Assembly: GCA_963737265.1 (NCBI GenBank)
Contig: CAVTRY010000006.1
Span: 32,001-96,000 of the forward strand
Reading direction: 5' to 3'
DNA: 64,000 nucleotides
Source: an uncultured delta proteobacterium
GTDB taxonomy: Bacteria > Myxococcota_A > Polyangia > Fen-1088
Below the pieces are notes generated by a model that was given only the letters and a program-made list of their open reading frames with translations, was not told where the DNA came from and did not search any database. Position 1 is the first letter of the stretch, and each line of letters opens with the position of its first letter. The translations under genes and the position numbers were made by a program. Positions 33,394-40,984 of this stretch are shown here, one piece after another.

Positions 33394-34725
33394 TCACGGC
33401 GGTCGCCAAGTCGCGAACCAGAGCCGGTGGTGGGCAGCCGCCGTCGAGAGAGCGAGCTCGCCCCAAACCGGCGCGTAGTACAGCGAAACAACCAGCGCCA
33501 AGGCGATGTAGCCAGCAACCCACTTGGGATACTTGCGTTCCAAATTCGAAGCGAGGCCCGCCAGCATGACCAGCAGAAACGCGTAACAGGGAAGGTAGTA
33601 ATGGCTGAAGGTATAGTTGCCGCGCGTGCCGCGCGTCGCAAGCCAGGGCGCCATGAACGCAAACCACCCAACCAACATCAAGAGGACACCCTGGGTCGTG
33701 GGCGCATCGAGGAGTGTGGACCAATAGCGCTTGAATCTCGACCGGACGACAATCACCGCAGTCGCGATGGGGAAGGCAACGACGAGAAAAGTCGTCGTGA
33801 ACCACATCAACAAGTTTCCCATGCTGGACGAATAGCGGGATGTCAGTCCGCTGGTTGACTGCTTCACGACGACTGGGTGCATGAGAATCGGCCAGCCATA
33901 CCAGGGCGACGTCAGTTCGTTCTTGTAGTGGCCGATGTCCAAGTGATGCCTGTAGAGATTGATAATTACCTTCCATGTCGACACGGGATCGCTCGGCTTA
34001 CCAGTCAGGCGCAAAGCCCCCATCCAGATGAGCGTGTGCACGATGGGAATGACCGCCAGCCACAGCACCGAAAAGCTGGAAACCCGACGCATCATGAGGA
34101 TTGCGACGGCGGCGGGAATAGCGGTCATGGCGCCACTCCATTTCACCGAGGCGGAAAATCCAATCAATACGCCAGCGACAATCACCCCGCGCCAGGTGCG
34201 CGCGGTAAGCGCCGCCACCATTCCCCACAGCATGAACGAGATCATGATTCCGTCGAGCAGCCCCGAGCGCGAATAGGAGATGAAGAAGCCGTCCGCGGCC
34301 ACGAACGCAGCCGCCATCCAGCCTGCGCGCTTGTCCTTGAACAAGGCGCGACCCATCCAATAGGCCAAACACACCGATTGCAAACCAAATAGCAGGGGAA
34401 CGAACCGCCAGCCCAGCGAGTTATATCCGAAGAGCAACATGCCCACGGCGATCAGCAACTTGCCGAGCGGCGCGTGGTCGTTGCCGTCAGGAAGCCCCAC
34501 GGCGTAATTGTGGGCATTGCGAACAAAAGGCTCTTCGTCGAAGGTGAACCAATTGGGCCACGCCACGCCTTGAATTCGAATCACCGCCCCGCCCACAATC
34601 ATCACGGCAATAAAAGCAGTAGTCCACCGTTGCGGCGCGGGCATCGCCGCCCAATCCTGGCGCAACCGCGCGCCCCAAGTGCGCAGATTCTCGGCAACGC
34701 GGTTCTTGGCGGATGCAATGCTCAT
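33394..34725 (-). CDS. PMT-family (GT39-like) lipid-carrier-dependent glycosyltransferase, copy A
   Basis: FDE, HAPLGK, GWRF, SR..LLD, SVKWSG, SPWYGWP, HYYLP; multi-TM. Confidence 0.88.
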   Translation of the reverse strand: MSIASAKNRVAENLRTWGARLRQDWAAMPAPQRWTTAFIAVMIVGGAVIRIQGVAWPNWFTFDEEPFVRNAHNYAVGLPDGNDHAPLGKLLIAVGMLLFGYNSLGWRFVPLLFGLQSVCLAYWMGRALFKDKRAGWMAAAFVAADGFFISYSRSGLLDGIMISFMLWGMVAALTARTWRGVIVAGVLIGFSASVKWSGAMTAIPAAVAILMMRRVSSFSVLWLAVIPIVHTLIWMGALRLTGKPSDPVSTWKVIINLYRHHLDIGHYKNELTSPWYGWPILMHPVVVKQSTSGLTSRYSSSMGNLLMWFTTTFLVVAFPIATAVIVVRSRFKRYWSTLLDAPTTQGVLLMLVGWFAFMAPWLATRGTRGNYTFSHYYLPCYAFLLVMLAGLASNLERKYPKWVAGYIALALVVSLYYAPVWGELALSTAAAHHRLWFATWRPP

Positions 34726-35417
34726 TGCGGAATCACGCAATCGGAAAGAGTGCCGATGGTCGCGCTCTGGGCGACGGGATTGAAACTGCCCGTGGCCGCC
34801 CAGCGCAGCGCAACCGATTTGGCGACGCCCACCACGCGATAGTTGCAAACCACCGTGAACCGCTCGACGGGCAAGGTCCCCTGTAGGGCCGGCGAAACCC
34901 AAAGGCCAGCTCCGAGGAAGAGCTCATTCTTGATTGTATTGTAGGGTTGCAGCGTATGGGCGTCGATTTCAGCGCTTGCGCCAAACGGCTGGCCGTTCGC
35001 GCGGTAGCCACAATGGGTGTCGCCGAAAATCTTGTCGGATGCACAAGCCAAGTTCTTCTTGTCTTCGCCGACGAGTGTGATTTCCACCATCTTCGTTCCA
35101 CCCAAGTGCCATCCCTCGGTGATCTGGGAGTACTTCTCCTTGTAGCCGCTCCACGCGAACAGCAGCCACAGCGCCACGCCCATAGCAAGGAAGCCAAAAG
35201 CCGTGTGGAGGAGAATGCTGTGCGGCAAAGCGTCTTCAGCGGCGGACGCGAGGCACTTCGCCGGGATTGCTTCGCTCGCCGGAGCTTGGGCACGCGCGGG
35301 CGAATGGGATTCGCTGTCACGTTGGTCAACTTGGGCGGGCCCGGAAGGATCGACAAGCGGATCGGCTTGCGGCGTGGCTTGCGACGCGGGCGCAAGGTCG
35401 TCGGGCGAAGAACTCAT
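34722..35417 (-). CDS. Unknown single-TM protein with 4-Cys extracytoplasmic domain, copy A
   Basis: Paralog of 36801-37466; ends SDCVIPQ; stop overlaps the PMT start (ATGA). Confidence 0.8.
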   Translation of the reverse strand: MSSSPDDLAPASQATPQADPLVDPSGPAQVDQRDSESHSPARAQAPASEAIPAKCLASAAEDALPHSILLHTAFGFLAMGVALWLLFAWSGYKEKYSQITEGWHLGGTKMVEITLVGEDKKNLACASDKIFGDTHCGYRANGQPFGASAEIDAHTLQPYNTIKNELFLGAGLWVSPALQGTLPVERFTVVCNYRVVGVAKSVALRWAATGSFNPVAQSATIGTLSDCVIPQ

Positions 35418-35478: not shown

Positions 35479-36804
35479 CTACGGCCGCCAAGGAAGAAAG
35501 ATCAGGCGACGATTGGCCTCTTCTGTGGTCAGAGGAAATTCGGCCCACACCGGCGCGAAATAGATTGCCATCAACAGGGCCAGACTGACGAACGCCAGCA
35601 CCGCGCGGGGCCAGCGCTGCTCTAGCTTGGCGGTAACCCCGGCCAACAGCACGATGGCGAAACCATAGGATGGCTGGTAGTGGTAGAAGAATGAGTGCTT
35701 TCCCATGGAGACGGCAAACAAGATGAGCAGGGCCGCCCAACCCGCGGCGAGTACCAGCACTGCCTCGGTGAACCGAGGGTCGAAATAGGATGCCCAATAG
35801 CGGCGCAGGCGCGGCCGCAAGGCCGCGAGGCCGCGGGTCAGGGGCAGCCCCATCACAAGCAGACTGGCGGGGAACCAGAACACTGGATTGCCAGCGCTGG
35901 AGGCATAGCGCAAGCTGGTTCCGTAGGATGACAGCTTGACCACGATGGGATGATAGAGAGCCGGCCAAGAATACCAGGGCGACGCCAAAGGATTGTCGTA
36001 CCGCCCGGTGGCGTGGAGGCTGATGAACGCTGTAACGATGACCTGCCATAACGCGGATGGATTACTGCTGTGGCCCATTACACGCAGTCCCACCATCCAA
36101 ATGAGAAAATGCGCAATGGGTGACAGCCCGAACAAGAAGATCGTTTGCCAGGGTACGCGGCGGAAGAGCAGCACGGCCAGGATGGCAGGCGCCAGGGTCT
36201 GCGCGGCACTCCATTTGATCGACGTGGCGGCCCCAATGATGACCGCGGCAACGGCCACGCCACGCCACGTGCGCGCGGTCACAACGGCCAGAACACTCCA
36301 TAAGATGAAGCAGGTGAGCATGCCATCGATCAGGGCCGTGCGCGAATAGGCGAGAAAGAAGCCATCCGCAGCGACAAAGCTCGCCGCAATCCAGCCCGCC
36401 CGCCGACTGGCGAAGATCTCGCGTGCAAGCCAGAAGGCGATGATCATCGTTTGCAAGCCGAAACACAAATACATGAACCGCCATCCCACCGGGTTGTAGC
36501 CAAACAGGAGCAACCCAATTGCGCCTAGCAGCTTGCCGAGCGGCGGATGGAAGTCGTGCATATCGGGAATGCCGAGCAAGAAGTGGTGCGACGTTGGCCC
36601 GTAGAACTGCTCGTCGAAGGTGTTGCGAGGCGGGAAGCCAATCCCTTGAATACGCAGGATCACGCCGCCCACGATCATCAAGGCAAGCAGCAGCGTGGTG
36701 ACACGTTGGGGGCGCCCAATGGATCCCCACCGCTCCAAGGCGTCTTGCCAGGCCGCGCGAACGGTGCGCACCAGGCCGCGAACCATCGTCGCTGGCATCA
36801 TCAT
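35479..36804 (-). CDS. PMT-family (GT39-like) lipid-carrier-dependent glycosyltransferase, copy B
   Basis: FDE, FHPPLGK, GWRF, SRTALID, SIKWS, SPWYSWP, GNP, FFYHYQP. Confidence 0.88.
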   Translation of the reverse strand: MMMPATMVRGLVRTVRAAWQDALERWGSIGRPQRVTTLLLALMIVGGVILRIQGIGFPPRNTFDEQFYGPTSHHFLLGIPDMHDFHPPLGKLLGAIGLLLFGYNPVGWRFMYLCFGLQTMIIAFWLAREIFASRRAGWIAASFVAADGFFLAYSRTALIDGMLTCFILWSVLAVVTARTWRGVAVAAVIIGAATSIKWSAAQTLAPAILAVLLFRRVPWQTIFLFGLSPIAHFLIWMVGLRVMGHSSNPSALWQVIVTAFISLHATGRYDNPLASPWYSWPALYHPIVVKLSSYGTSLRYASSAGNPVFWFPASLLVMGLPLTRGLAALRPRLRRYWASYFDPRFTEAVLVLAAGWAALLILFAVSMGKHSFFYHYQPSYGFAIVLLAGVTAKLEQRWPRAVLAFVSLALLMAIYFAPVWAEFPLTTEEANRRLIFLPWRP

Positions 36805-37466
36805 TGCGGAATCACACAGTCCGAGAGCAGTCCCACGGGCACAGCGCTTTTTGCCGGGCCGAATGCACCTCCTACCGCCCAGCGCAGCGACACCGACTTC
36901 ATCGTGCTGACCATGTGATAATTGCACGTCACTGTGAAGCGGTCTTTGGGGAGCGCGCTGGACAGGCCAGGTGAGCTCCAGAGGCCCGCGCCAAGAAAGA
37001 GCACCTGATCCGCGGTGTTGTAAGGACGCAGTCGCGCCGAGTCGGGGGTGCCGTTCGGCTCGAAGGGCTGCTGATTGGACCGATACGCGCAGTGCAGACC
37101 TCCCAGCACCAGGTCAGAGGCACAGTCAAGGCTCTGAATATCTTCGCGAACCAAGGTGATCTCGATGGATCGCGTGCCCCCGGCGTACCACCCATCGGCG
37201 AGAGGCGCGTAACGCTTGCCGTAGTTCGTCCATGCGAAAATTAGCCAGACACCAAAGCTGACAATGAACAGGCTGAGCAGTGTGTAACAAAGCACGTTGA
37301 ATTCGCCGGTTACCTTGGATGGCGGAAGAACGTCAGGTTGTGCGACCGGGCGTTCTTCAAGAAGCGATGCGGTCGTCGCCGCTGGCCCGGGCAACGAGCT
37401 CTCGACTTGCGGTTCGCCACTCGTTGCGACATCGAGCGAAGTCTCGGGAACGGGCGGTGAGGCCAT
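36801..37466 (-). CDS. Unknown single-TM protein with 4-Cys extracytoplasmic domain, copy B
   Basis: EITLV.ED, CASD, HC.YR.N.QPF, PYNT, LFLGAGLW.SP, RFTV.CNY, LRWA and SDCVIPQ shared with 34722-35417. Confidence 0.8.
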   Translation of the reverse strand: MASPPVPETSLDVATSGEPQVESSLPGPAATTASLLEERPVAQPDVLPPSKVTGEFNVLCYTLLSLFIVSFGVWLIFAWTNYGKRYAPLADGWYAGGTRSIEITLVREDIQSLDCASDLVLGGLHCAYRSNQQPFEPNGTPDSARLRPYNTADQVLFLGAGLWSSPGLSSALPKDRFTVTCNYHMVSTMKSVSLRWAVGGAFGPAKSAVPVGLLSDCVIPQ

Positions 37467-37532
37467 GAGAACATAATTAGTGGAACCCACTCCTGCCGTC
37501 AACCAACGAGCGTCCGCCGCGAGGCGCAGAAG

Positions 37533-37586
37533 GTCGTGGCCGTGGTCGGAGTAATCATCTTCGTCGGCCACGGCCACGGCCACGAC
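37533..37586. repeat. REP-like palindrome built from (GGCCAC)n units
   Basis: gtcgtggccgtggtcg pairs with cggccacggccacgac (15/16); three tandem ggccac units. Confidence 0.55.
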
Positions 37587-37749
37587 GACGTTTACGACTA
37601 CCATTCATCGCGCCAACTGGGTGGTGCGTCCATCCTGGAAAGGCGCCTTTTTCTGCCGCCTTTCGCGACGTCGCTGCGCTTGTCGCGGGTTTACGGGTCC
37701 GCGTCGCCGTGATCCTCGTCACAACGATTGCTCGTGCTACTCTCGGCGC

Positions 37750-38616: not shown

Positions 38617-39425
38617 GCCTAATCGACTTTCACTTGCGCGAGCCCGTGTGCCTCGGCAAACGGCGCCGCGACGAACACCGCCGCGAGCGCGTCGAGGTGG
38701 ACGCAGCGCCAGCGCGGGTCGTGCGCGAGAACATCGATGGCACGGCCGAGAATTCCCCGCTCGATAAGTAGCGCGGGGATGTCGTCGGACCGCGCATAGT
38801 CGATGCCCAGCGGAATTCCCCAATCGGCCTCGCCACGCCACAGCTTGCGGATCCCGGCGACATAGCGCTCGAAGGTCTCTTGCGAATTGACTTCGAGTCG
38901 TGGATCCATGAACAGCTTGTGCTCGGGCGCCGCATGCGCGATGCACACGCCAGCTTGCCCCAGATTGAAGGCCGCAATCCGCTCGGGCATGTCTGGCCTG
39001 GCCAGGAGATCACAGGCTTCGTGCGCGTACCATTGCCGGCGCTCGCCGAAACCCACCGTCCTGCCCTCGCCGGCCCACGAATACAGGGTGCCGGAAAGAG
39101 CGGCGAGGCCGACCAGGGCGATCGCGACGAGAAGTCCAAGGTGCGCCGCGGGTCGCAGCTTCGCCGTATCGCGCGGGCGGCGCGTTCGGTGTGTGCGCCT
39201 GAATTTGACCGGCGCGGCGGATACGGCGCGGGTGGCTTCGATGGCGTCATCGAAGGTCCGCGCGATCACAATGGCCGCGACCAGGGCGAAAAGAGCACTG
39301 TTTCGCGTGGCCTGCCACCCAAGATAGAACGATGCCGAAAAAAGCAGCAGGCGATATAGGCTGAAGCGACCACGCCGCACAAGCCAGGCGAAGCTGACCA
39401 TCCCGAGCGCCAGCACCACCAGAAA

Positions 39426-40004
39426 GGGTGCCTCCCTGAAACGGGGGCCCCAGCCGGGGGCTCGGTGAGGTAGCAACTTCTGGCGGAGTGCCGCCGAAAA
39501 CGCAGATCTGGAACAGCGAGGAACGGAGAAACAGAGACAGGATGACTTTACTGGGCAAATTATCGCCGCCTGCATCGAAGTCCACCGTCACCTCGGTCCC
39601 GGGCTGCTTGAGTCGGCCTACGAGCACTGCCTGGCGCGCGAGCTAGGCCTGCGTGGATTTCGCACGCAACGTCAGGTCGCGATTCCTCTGCAGTACAAAG
39701 GCATTGACCTCGACTGCGGCTATCGCCTCGACCTCATGGTGGAAGGCCGTTTGGTCGTCGAAGTCAAGGCGGTAGAGCAGTTGCTTCCTGTCCACTTGGC
39801 ACAGGTCATTACCTATCTCAAGCTCCTACGACTGCCGGTGGGCCTGCTCGTCAATTTCCACGTCCCCGTACTTCGCGAGGGTCTCCGCCACCTCGTCAAC
39901 CCAACCCGTGATCCCTCTGGTCCTCCGTTCCTCCCTGTTTTTCCCTCCGATCCCACCTGCGCGGGGCGAGGTGAAGCCCCAGCCCCCATTTCAGGGAAGC
40001 ACCC
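39426..40004. mobile_element. 579-bp transposase-less insertion cassette carrying a GxxExxY nuclease gene
   Basis: TIR gggtgcctccctgaaacgggggc/gcccccatttcagggaagcaccc (21/23); direct repeat caccagaaa at 39417-25 and 40005-13; inner IR 39512-36/39915-39. Confidence 0.9.
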
Positions 40005-40026
40005 CACCAGAAATGCGAGCAGGTAG
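39508..40026 (+). CDS. GxxExxY protein (PD-(D/E)XK nuclease family)
   Basis: IIAACIEVHRHLGPGLLESAYE, YKG, YRLDLMVE..VVEVKAV, HLAQVITYLK, GLLVNF; frame open from 39469; CTG start inferred. Confidence 0.9.
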   Translation: MEQRGTEKQRQDDFTGQIIAACIEVHRHLGPGLLESAYEHCLARELGLRGFRTQRQVAIPLQYKGIDLDCGYRLDLMVEGRLVVEVKAVEQLLPVHLAQVITYLKLLRLPVGLLVNFHVPVLREGLRHLVNPTRDPSGPPFLPVFPSDPTCAGRGEAPAPISGKHPTRNASR

Positions 40027-40381
40027 GGATTGTTCACCCCGGCGATCGCGATGAAATCGCCGATACTTTTTAGCTCGCCGATTGAGCAACTGCGCGGCGT
40101 ACGCGGCGAGGACGAGCGGACCAGACCGGTTCGGAACGGGATCCGGCGTGCCGGGGCTGGGATCACGTGGACCTCCGGGTTGAGCCGTCGTCGTGAAACC
40201 GGGTGATGACCGAAATCAGCATGGGGCGCTCGCCGCGCGCATCATCCCACGCCGGGTGGCCCGGCCAAGAACTTTGAAGCCGCGTTTTGTGAGGGCGGGT
40301 AGGGTGTCGGCAATTCTCTTTGCAGGGCCGCCTGGCCACGCCGGTGCGATACAATGAGGGACATGGAGGACACGAGCTCGA

Positions 40382-40984
40382 GTGGATAGGACCTGTTCCC
40401 GCCGCGAACGCCAGCATTGGTGTCCTTCCGTGGTGTTTATTATCCTCTTCTTTCTGGTCCGGACGGCCAATGCCAGCGACGAGGAGAAGATGCCAGCGCC
40501 ACGCTTGGCGACGTTTTTCGGGCGACTCCTTGCCTACGATACCAACCTCAAGGACCGGGCGAAGGGACGCATCGACATCGCTGTCCTCTATCGGCGCGGG
40601 GGCACATCGCCGGAGGATCTCGCCGCGATGACGAACGCTCTCCAGACCCTCGAGCTGACGAGGATCTTGGACCTTCCGGTCAAGACCTACAGCGTCGCCG
40701 TCACCAACCTGGCGGAGTTGGAAAAGGCGGTCGAGCTGCACGGCATCGATGCGTTCATCGTCAGCCCCGGCCTCGAAGGGCAAACCGCGCTCATCACCCA
40801 AGTGAGTGAAAGAAGGAAGGTCATCGCCCTTGGCTTGGCCAGCGCTCAGGCGCGTGCAGGCTTCGCCGTCGCGGTCTATCTTGAAAACAAGAAGAGCAAA
40901 ATCCTGGTGAACCTGAGCGCGAGCAAGCTCAAGGGCGCCGCGTTCAGCAGCGACCTGCTACGGCTCTCGGAGGTCATCCCGTGA
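40382..40984 (+). CDS. YfiR/DUF4154-like periplasmic protein
   Basis: Signal-like segment, RLLAYD.NL, C-terminal KILVNL.ASK..GA.FSSDLLRLSEVI. Confidence 0.7.
   Translation: MDRTCSRRERQHWCPSVVFIILFFLVRTANASDEEKMPAPRLATFFGRLLAYDTNLKDRAKGRIDIAVLYRRGGTSPEDLAAMTNALQTLELTRILDLPVKTYSVAVTNLAELEKAVELHGIDAFIVSPGLEGQTALITQVSERRKVIALGLASAQARAGFAVAVYLENKKSKILVNLSASKLKGAAFSSDLLRLSEVIP

Follow-up and report, generated by a model that had tools for sequence, protein, structure and literature searches.

How does a 579-bp stretch of DNA with no transposase of its own come to lie inside a membrane-protein gene, and does the single gene that it carries take part in its movement? The question is raised by a locus in the metagenome-assembled genome (MAG) of an uncultured soil bacterium (here G000; 6.55 Mb in 25 contigs, contamination estimate 7.6%), of which a window of 64,000 nucleotides on contig CAVTRY010000006.1 was analysed; coordinates without a contig label are positions in this window. 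An original prediction, made from the sequence alone, had described the element at 39426-40004 as a mobile cassette with a gene of the GxxExxY family as its only cargo. We find a real, recently amplified, promoter-seeking non-autonomous cassette with the ends of an ISKra4-family insertion sequence (IS) and a passenger gene in decay. In all likelihood, this transposase-less cassette, present at 39 loci, owes its copies to an ISKra4 transposase (Mutator-like DDE) acting in trans, and the predicted nuclease that it encodes is a decaying passenger.

The element, its empty site and its genomic copies

The element was located exactly where it had been predicted. Its outer terminal inverted repeats (TIRs), at 39426-39448 and 39982-40004, are 23 nt long and match at 21 of 23 positions (91% complementary), with the element terminating in CACCC, and they are flanked by a perfect 9-bp target-site duplication, caccagaaa, on the forward strand at 39417-39425 and 40005-40013. 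Six-frame translation of the 579 bp revealed no transposase. The claim of a real insertion event, derived from excising the element, is borne out by empty alleles in three relatives, in which caccagaaa is present as a single copy: the sequence with the element excised aligns across the junction with G002 without gaps, and with G010 and G001 with small compensating gaps. The predicted nested inner inverted repeat is present as well, with a left arm at 39512-39536 (forward strand, overlapping the first codons of the open reading frame, ORF) and a right arm at 39915-39939 (reverse strand) matching at 22 of 25 nt, and it is the feature that generalizes across GxxExxY loci.

Scanning G000 for the TIRs (≤4 mismatches), as had been proposed with the original prediction, gave 75 sites, which pair into 36 elements, namely 35 cassettes and one IS of 2120 bp. 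In total, 39 loci in G000 derive from the cassette, and the window element is therefore not a chance arrangement. The two-ended cassettes carry an exact 9-bp duplication in 31 of 35 cases; in the others the duplication is 10 bp long (1), matches at 7 of 9 positions (2) or is lacking (1). The short cassettes, 31 in number and 564–580 bp long, form two subfamilies that are approximately 93% alike, with mosaics. Among the G000 repeats compared, the cassette is the most amplified (39 loci versus 10, 10 and 1). A search of the plasmid collection gave no match.

The copies could in principle be assembly or contamination artefacts of the MAG, given its contamination estimate and the junctions of the window copy, which were unbridged in the four sequencing runs examined. 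Single-nucleotide polymorphisms (SNPs) specific to individual copies, distinct duplications and the empty alleles in three relatives make this explanation barely credible. It is also opposed by the read depth in run X1, which is 61–83 on the element and 0–4 on its flanks, with loose ends that match the flanks of other G000 copies; the runs come from one study and are possibly the source material, and X1 is not independent. As candidates for new insertion sites, two of three loose-end motifs were not found in G000; the support for each is one or two contigs, which may belong to other strains.

The cassettes are themselves landing sites. An IS4-like element has inserted into them twice, near each end (G000:C20:14118-16133 and C23:162554-164571); these 2-kb elements were considered as autonomous partners and rejected, being cassettes with a nested IS4-like element that has its own ends. 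Other inserts (C20:7328-8008, C13:547670-548445 and C14:367967) comprise a ~110-bp sequence resembling repetitive extragenic palindromes (REP-like), a ~190-bp sequence and another repeat family that replaces the left end.

ISKra4 ends and choice of target

A non-autonomous cassette mobilized in trans had been among the proposals of the original prediction. This is well supported, and the family can now be given as ISKra4, based on end matches of 21–23 out of 23 and transposases above the family cut-off. The intact IS of G000 (G000:C20:66979-69098, 2120 bp) is flanked by a 9-bp duplication. It encodes a 466-aa transposase that scores 257 bits against the ISKra4 model NF033572 (cut-off 205), as well as a 141-aa ORF; the hexamer TCGACA lies 16 bp outside one of its ends. 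An exact TIR-pattern scan of the metagenome collection gave 15 stretches on 11 contigs. All four two-ended metagenomic elements (L043, L046, L049 and L051) are 2.0–2.15 kb long, encode transposases 73–75% identical to that of the C20 IS, have TIRs matching the cassette at 21–23 of 23 positions, and are without a GxxExxY gene. The L051 transposase is frameshifted; the other three were scanned, and all pass the ISKra4 cut-off. The left TIR of the window copy (39426-39448, forward strand) matches the metagenomic ends at 22 of 23 positions (21–22 for L051) and the C20 IS at 19 of 23. The right portion of the cassette, at 39951-40004 on the reverse strand, is an ISKra4-family right end including the right TIR and half a subterminal hairpin; the final 55 bp are identical at 51 positions to the end of L046, downstream of the L046 genes.

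Of 401 genomes of the class, 5 have the TIR pattern (≤2 mismatches), one of them being G000, and a C20-type transposase (E ≤ 1e-60) was found only in G000 among 89 genomes of the family, many of them fragmented. A search for other cargo in the same shell found single TIRs in G009, G018, G011, G298 and seven metagenomic contigs, with no paired end within the examined DNA, several of them lying at contig ends. The 141-aa second ORF that follows the transposase is conserved between the C20 IS (G000:C20:68536-68958; L002:3037-3462) and L043, L044, L046, L049 and L051 (66–74% identical), and matches no Pfam or NCBIfam family above cut-off. G000 also contains a second ISKra4-like IS family (G000:C2:48037-49818 and at least nine further loci) of 1782 bp, with 10 full copies and 9-bp duplications, which scores below the NF033572 cut-off and often has a TTG or −35-like hexamer 16 bp out. 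It is an unlikely partner of the cassette, as its TIRs match at 10–11 of 23 positions.

In the interior of the cassette, element positions 41–514 are 91% identical to a GxxExxY locus in G005, and positions 44/47–523 show 81–82% identity with two loci in G009; the outer TIRs are lacking at all three. Because the ends match ISKra4 and the interior matches the TIR-less G005 locus, the cassette is a mosaic in which IS ends enclose a GxxExxY unit that existed beforehand. By homology to the G005 and G009 loci, the captured unit, comprising leader, gene core and inner inverted repeat, extends approximately from 39466 to 39957 on the forward strand. The rest of the left shell (39449-39465, forward strand) contains a small GC hairpin and presumably comes from the left end of an IS; its boundary is set by element position 41, where similarity to the shell-less G005 unit begins, the likeness to the L043 left end being weak and positional.

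Since the element has IS-family ends and no transposase, mobilization by an enzyme made elsewhere is most likely. We propose that the left ~40 bp and the right ~54 bp of an ISKra4 element came to enclose a GxxExxY gene that brought along an inner inverted repeat of its own, the gene having either landed in a miniature derivative or taken the place of the IS interior. An ISKra4 transposase would bind the 23-bp ends and make a 9-bp stagger on insertion, in many cases at a distance of 16 bp upstream of a sigma-70 −35 box located to the left or the right, and transposition would probably proceed via the circular intermediate described for the superfamily. No circle joint was seen in the four runs, which were kept as contigs, a form that drops rare variants. 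The supplier of the enzyme may be the single intact IS on C20, or a closer relative that was lost or remained unassembled.

The cassette avoids genes and sits at the promoter signature of the ISKra4 group, a TTG at 16 bp. This was examined at 33 reconstructed sites, leaving out one duplication-less copy, the second member of a same-site tandem and four partial loci. With genes called by a crude codon model, the insertion was intragenic at 5 of the 33 sites, compared with 212 of 300 random positions (Fisher p = 6e-10). At exactly 16 bp out, TTG was present on the right at 8 of the 33 sites (p = 1e-8) and on the left at 6 (p = 5e-6), the background being 1.4%; 72 offset-side combinations were examined, and no offset but 16 in the range from 9 to 44 reached the reporting threshold. 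Fuller promoter-like matches were found in 8 right and 2 left flanks, against a background of 0.2%. Sections of PMC3942029 describe ISKra4-group elements with 8–9-bp duplications, near-perfect inverted repeats of 18–39 bp and promoters on both sides, and report a promoter-spacing peak at 16 bp that is strong for p-MULT 3 and similar, at a lower level, for p-MULT 4. At G000:C17:62354-63520, two different cassette variants lie in tandem at a distance of 16 bp from TTGACC, separated and flanked by an identical 9-bp sequence; a site defined by a promoter was probably used twice here.

The window copy is one of the few intragenic insertions, in a truncated duplicate of a gene that has a longer paralogue elsewhere. 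That a gene was interrupted had been correctly recognized; it had already been a 5'-truncated duplicate. The 3' part of this membrane-protein gene lies on the reverse strand at 38619-39416 (residues 335–590 of the G001 orthologue, 60%), and a short 5' remnant at 40014-40085, also on the reverse strand, covers residues 309–335, where homology stops. Only residues 309–590 of the 596-aa orthologue are thus represented, and approximately 300 N-terminal residues are missing; the longer paralogue is at G000:C16:57586-59202 (residues 63–590, 62%). The host gene matched no Pfam or NCBIfam family above cut-off. In-frame read-through of the element by the host gene, conceivable as 579 + 9 is divisible by 3, is ruled out by the lack of any frame open across the element. 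Elsewhere in the window, two tandem paralogous gene pairs are present at 33394-34902 / 35479-36927 and at 34722-35417 / 36801-37604; members of the former we take to be membrane proteins resembling protein O-mannosyltransferases, and those of the latter presumably are small membrane-anchored proteins.

The GxxExxY gene within the cassette

Of the description of the cargo as a single ORF with a complete GxxExxY core, the family assignment holds and the ends of the frame required correction. The only families matched were TIGR04256 GxxExxY (140 bits; cut-off 35) and PF13366 PDDEXK_3 (138 bits; cut-off 22). The ORF (39508-40026, forward strand) begins in the window copy with CTG at 39508, where ATG is present at 34 of 39 loci and in contigs of three sequencing runs, and it has no stop within the element, reading through the right TIR to a stop at 40024-40026. 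Cassette ORFs, being stop-less, acquire a random C-terminal tail at each insertion site. A simple consensus scan of 39300-40450 found no sigma-70-type promoter.

An AlphaFold2 model of the reference copy had a pLDDT score of 93.9. Most of the nearest folds were those of restriction-like, Cas4, exonuclease and Hjc nucleases, and the similarity was modest (best Z 7.6, root-mean-square deviation 3.2, 114 aligned; no Foldseek E ≤ 0.001), and a sequence search of the PDB with the protein gave no match. Residues E35, E85 and K87 are invariant and D75 is conserved at 90% or more in 46 sequences, with all four present in the majority sequence of the cassette; from the motif, they are the putative catalytic residues. 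As the sole ORF of a known family in the element, the GxxExxY gene might be supposed to encode the transposase of the 579-bp element, recognizing its 23-bp ends and making the 9-bp stagger. We consider this very unlikely: the same ends occur on ISKra4 elements without GxxExxY, a duplication of this length and a promoter spacing of 16 bp are traits of ISKra4 transposases, such a shell was found at 0 of 102 other GxxExxY loci, and the predicted fold resembles, at the modest similarity given above, restriction enzyme, Cas4 and Hjc nucleases and not a DDE core.

Homologues within the genus are under purifying selection relative to each other, with ratios of non-synonymous to synonymous changes per site (pN/pS) of 0.18–0.41, uncorrected. 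Among the young cassette copies, the distinct changes, 14 of them non-synonymous and 4 synonymous (288:99 sites), fit neutrality (p = 1.0) and reject the homologue ratio of 0.22 (p = 0.001). Of the 31 short copies, 15 retain an ATG and an unbroken core; length alone would give 17, of which one was removed for Q3* and one for a compensated double frameshift. Copies at three separate locations, which have duplications of their own, share a +1 frameshift linked to a private SNP and make up a single clade; in one of these three copies, the frame is restored by a second indel. Gap openings amounted to 1.74 per kb in the cassette and 0.14–0.17 per kb in two control IS families, and assembly error as the source of all indels was rejected on this comparison.

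Because young substitutions are neutral, the frameshifted clade occupies three sites of its own and other copies are broken, the predicted nuclease is very probably not needed in cis. The proposal that the nuclease aids its own spread or retention is not supported for this cassette, the young copies being neutral and broken copies having insertion sites of their own; self-mobilization by the nuclease was rejected on neutral decay, broken lineages and the ISKra4 ownership of the ends.

A lesser role for the protein can be imagined, in which the ISKra4 transposase moves the cassette and GxxExxY protein from clean copies helps in trans, for example in circle or hairpin processing, or gave an early retention advantage. 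Such help would explain why the cassette was amplified and not an empty miniature; it agrees with the cassette being the most amplified repeat compared with no empty shell found, with a majority sequence in which the core and E35, D75, E85 and K87 are intact, and with the divergence between subfamilies at a pN/pS of 0.40. We regard it as improbable in view of the neutral young substitutions, the lost stop of the ORF and its random tails, the lack of a detectable sigma-70-type promoter in the simple scan, the autonomous relatives without a GxxExxY gene, and a related inner unit that is multi-copy in G003 and G004 in a different shell with most of its ORF deleted.

Several of our observations sit uneasily with the preferred reading, a decaying passenger carried by an ISKra4 transposase. 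The proposed link between cassette and transposase is drawn from sequence resemblance. The TIRs of the single-copy C20 IS match those of the cassette at only 19/23 and 17/23, and this IS may therefore not be the true master; no 9-bp duplication is present at L043 and L049, the two metagenomic elements with both flanks. The window copy is intragenic and has no TTG at the 16-bp offset on either side. Pure hitchhiking often yields a gene-less miniature, and none with cassette ends was found in the TIR scan of G000. The pN/pS between the subfamilies is 0.40 (7:6 changes), a hint that the cassette was under a degree of selection at an earlier stage, and the approximately 15 clean copies could supply GxxExxY protein in trans. 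Finally, a recurrent 1-bp deletion at 10 loci is scattered over SNP backgrounds, possibly through systematic sequencing error or gene conversion; because this deletion is suspect, the number of broken copies should be read as a maximum.

Known relatives of the cassette and its inner unit

The passenger-gene definition of mobile insertion cassettes (MICs) reportedly goes back to MIC231 of Chen et al. 1999. The architecture had been put forward as possibly new, yet IS ends around a passenger without a transposase constitute the MIC class as described in parts of PMC3129680; together with miniature inverted-repeat transposable elements, MICs are treated there and in parts of PMC6542083 as transposase-less IS derivatives activated by an intact relative. 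Like MICs, the cassette lacks a transposase and combines IS-type terminal repeats and a target duplication with a passenger gene of unrelated origin; a related IS that may be its cognate is intact in G000. It has the IS-derived TIRs, a passenger in place of a transposase, and a real insertion with a duplication of the parental length, while the TIRs of the resident intact ISKra4 IS agree only at the 19/23 and 17/23 noted above. It differs from MICs in that its ends are ISKra4 and not IS231/IS4, in its 39 loci in one genome, and in its passenger, a nuclease-fold gene with older inverted-repeat arms that is decaying rather than of known benefit.

With the ISKra4-group ISs (p-MULT 4, Guerillot et al. 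2014, sections of PMC3942029; NF033572), the cassette shares near-perfect 23-bp TIRs, which the p-MULT 4 criterion in those sections sets at 83–100% complementary, the terminal C, the 9-bp duplication and the 16-bp spacing to the −35 box, whereas the p-MULT 4 DDE transposase ORF is lacking from its 579 bp. The sections of PMC3942029 apart from its supplementary tables mention ISKra4 elements with extra genes and no transposase-less derivative. A literature search, which lay outside ISfinder, most subscription journals and supplements, found no paper on GxxExxY cassettes or ISKra4-derived MICs, and nuclease activity of GxxExxY proteins was not shown in the papers found. The function of PF13366 is given as 'Unknown', with multiple transfers, in part of PMC3424549. 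The cassette gene shares with the GxxExxY family the full-length domain with E35, D75, E85 and K87; most members stop at or shortly after the domain and give 1–3 matches per genome, whereas the cassette gene is stop-less, multi-copy and without detectable recent selection.

To examine GxxExxY loci at large, we surveyed the best 80 of 200 confirmed loci of the genome collection, plus 30 loci of the family, four of them from G000. At the strict setting, no shell of TIRs plus an 8–10-bp duplication was found outside G000, and three G000 control loci were detected. At a relaxed setting, the 102 distinct non-G000 loci, 98 of which have at least 300 bp on both sides, gave four matches at 14/20, which were long and heterogeneous and were judged to be chance. 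The idea that the cassette accounts for the patchy occurrence of GxxExxY genes thus finds no support at 102 other loci.

The inner repeat, by contrast with this shell, is widespread. An inverted repeat (score ≥13) flanks the gene at 50 of 80 loci across phyla versus 0 of 79 shifted controls, and at 27 of 30 family loci versus 0 of 30 controls. The arms are mostly arrays of 8–9-nt words. At the 46 loci with a canonical arm at both ends (such as L062, L066, L067, L070, L119, L133, L147 and L161), the bordering 4-mer is mostly TTCA or TGAA, in direct orientation at 11, inverted at 14 and neither at 21, a pattern at odds both with a target duplication alone and with an inverted repeat alone. The TTCA/TGAA border resembles a short, asymmetric crossover core, and cutting may take place there.

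Related units occur in other settings. In G003 and G004, a multi-copy repeat of ~310 bp (L173, L174, L178, L179, L183, L184, L188, L189, L193 and L198) consists of inner arms related to those of the cassette, with most of the GxxExxY ORF deleted and a REP-like inverted pair around it that is unrelated to the ISKra4 ends. As this unit is multi-copy in a different, REP-like shell, it apparently hitchhiked more than once. The closest shell-less homologue, L055/L008 (G005:C17:34834-35364), has a second copy of the right end directly upstream, with positions 478–532 joined to 41; this head-to-tail junction could be a tandem or a circle relic. It follows the end of what we take to be a PIN-like gene of toxin-antitoxin type. 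G000 also contains a single ordinary shell-less GxxExxY gene (G000:C22:198377-198724; L170), 60% identical and with canonical inner arms. At the homologue L009/L056 (G009:C239), the first 11 bases of the cassette left TIR lie just upstream of the leader, with a short inverted pair outside, and this locus may be a decayed relative or a chance match.

Small nuclease genes that have a characteristic repeat on each side in many phyla are also known from the Ssn nuclease and its NTS/SRM repeats, as presented in part of PMC11893778, and with REP/RAYT; in that part, 42% of ssnA homologues are flanked on both sides. The inner unit differs in that GxxExxY has a PD-(D/E)XK fold and not a GIY-YIG or HUH one, its arms are inverted arrays of 8–9-nt units, and binding or cleavage of these arms by the protein is putative. 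It is conceivable, if rather doubtful, that the inner unit of ~470–490 bp represents an undescribed class of selfish element, in which a PD-(D/E)XK nuclease would act on its own arms to move or invert the unit, and that one such unit jumped into an ISKra4 miniature and was amplified 39-fold. If true, the cassette would be a nested element of two mobility systems, and G000 would provide a ready set of wild-type and naturally broken copies.

Collectively, the locus provides a clean example of an ISKra4-derived cassette that places a 579-bp element with a stop-less ORF next to promoters at dozens of sites, and extends the promoter-targeting habit of ISKra4 to a non-autonomous derivative. A gene of unknown function can reach approximately 40 copies without selection acting on it, so that copy number is not proof of function. 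The inner inverted repeat is a more important lead than the cassette itself: for proteins with no known role, a repeat found family-wide offers a concrete candidate substrate.

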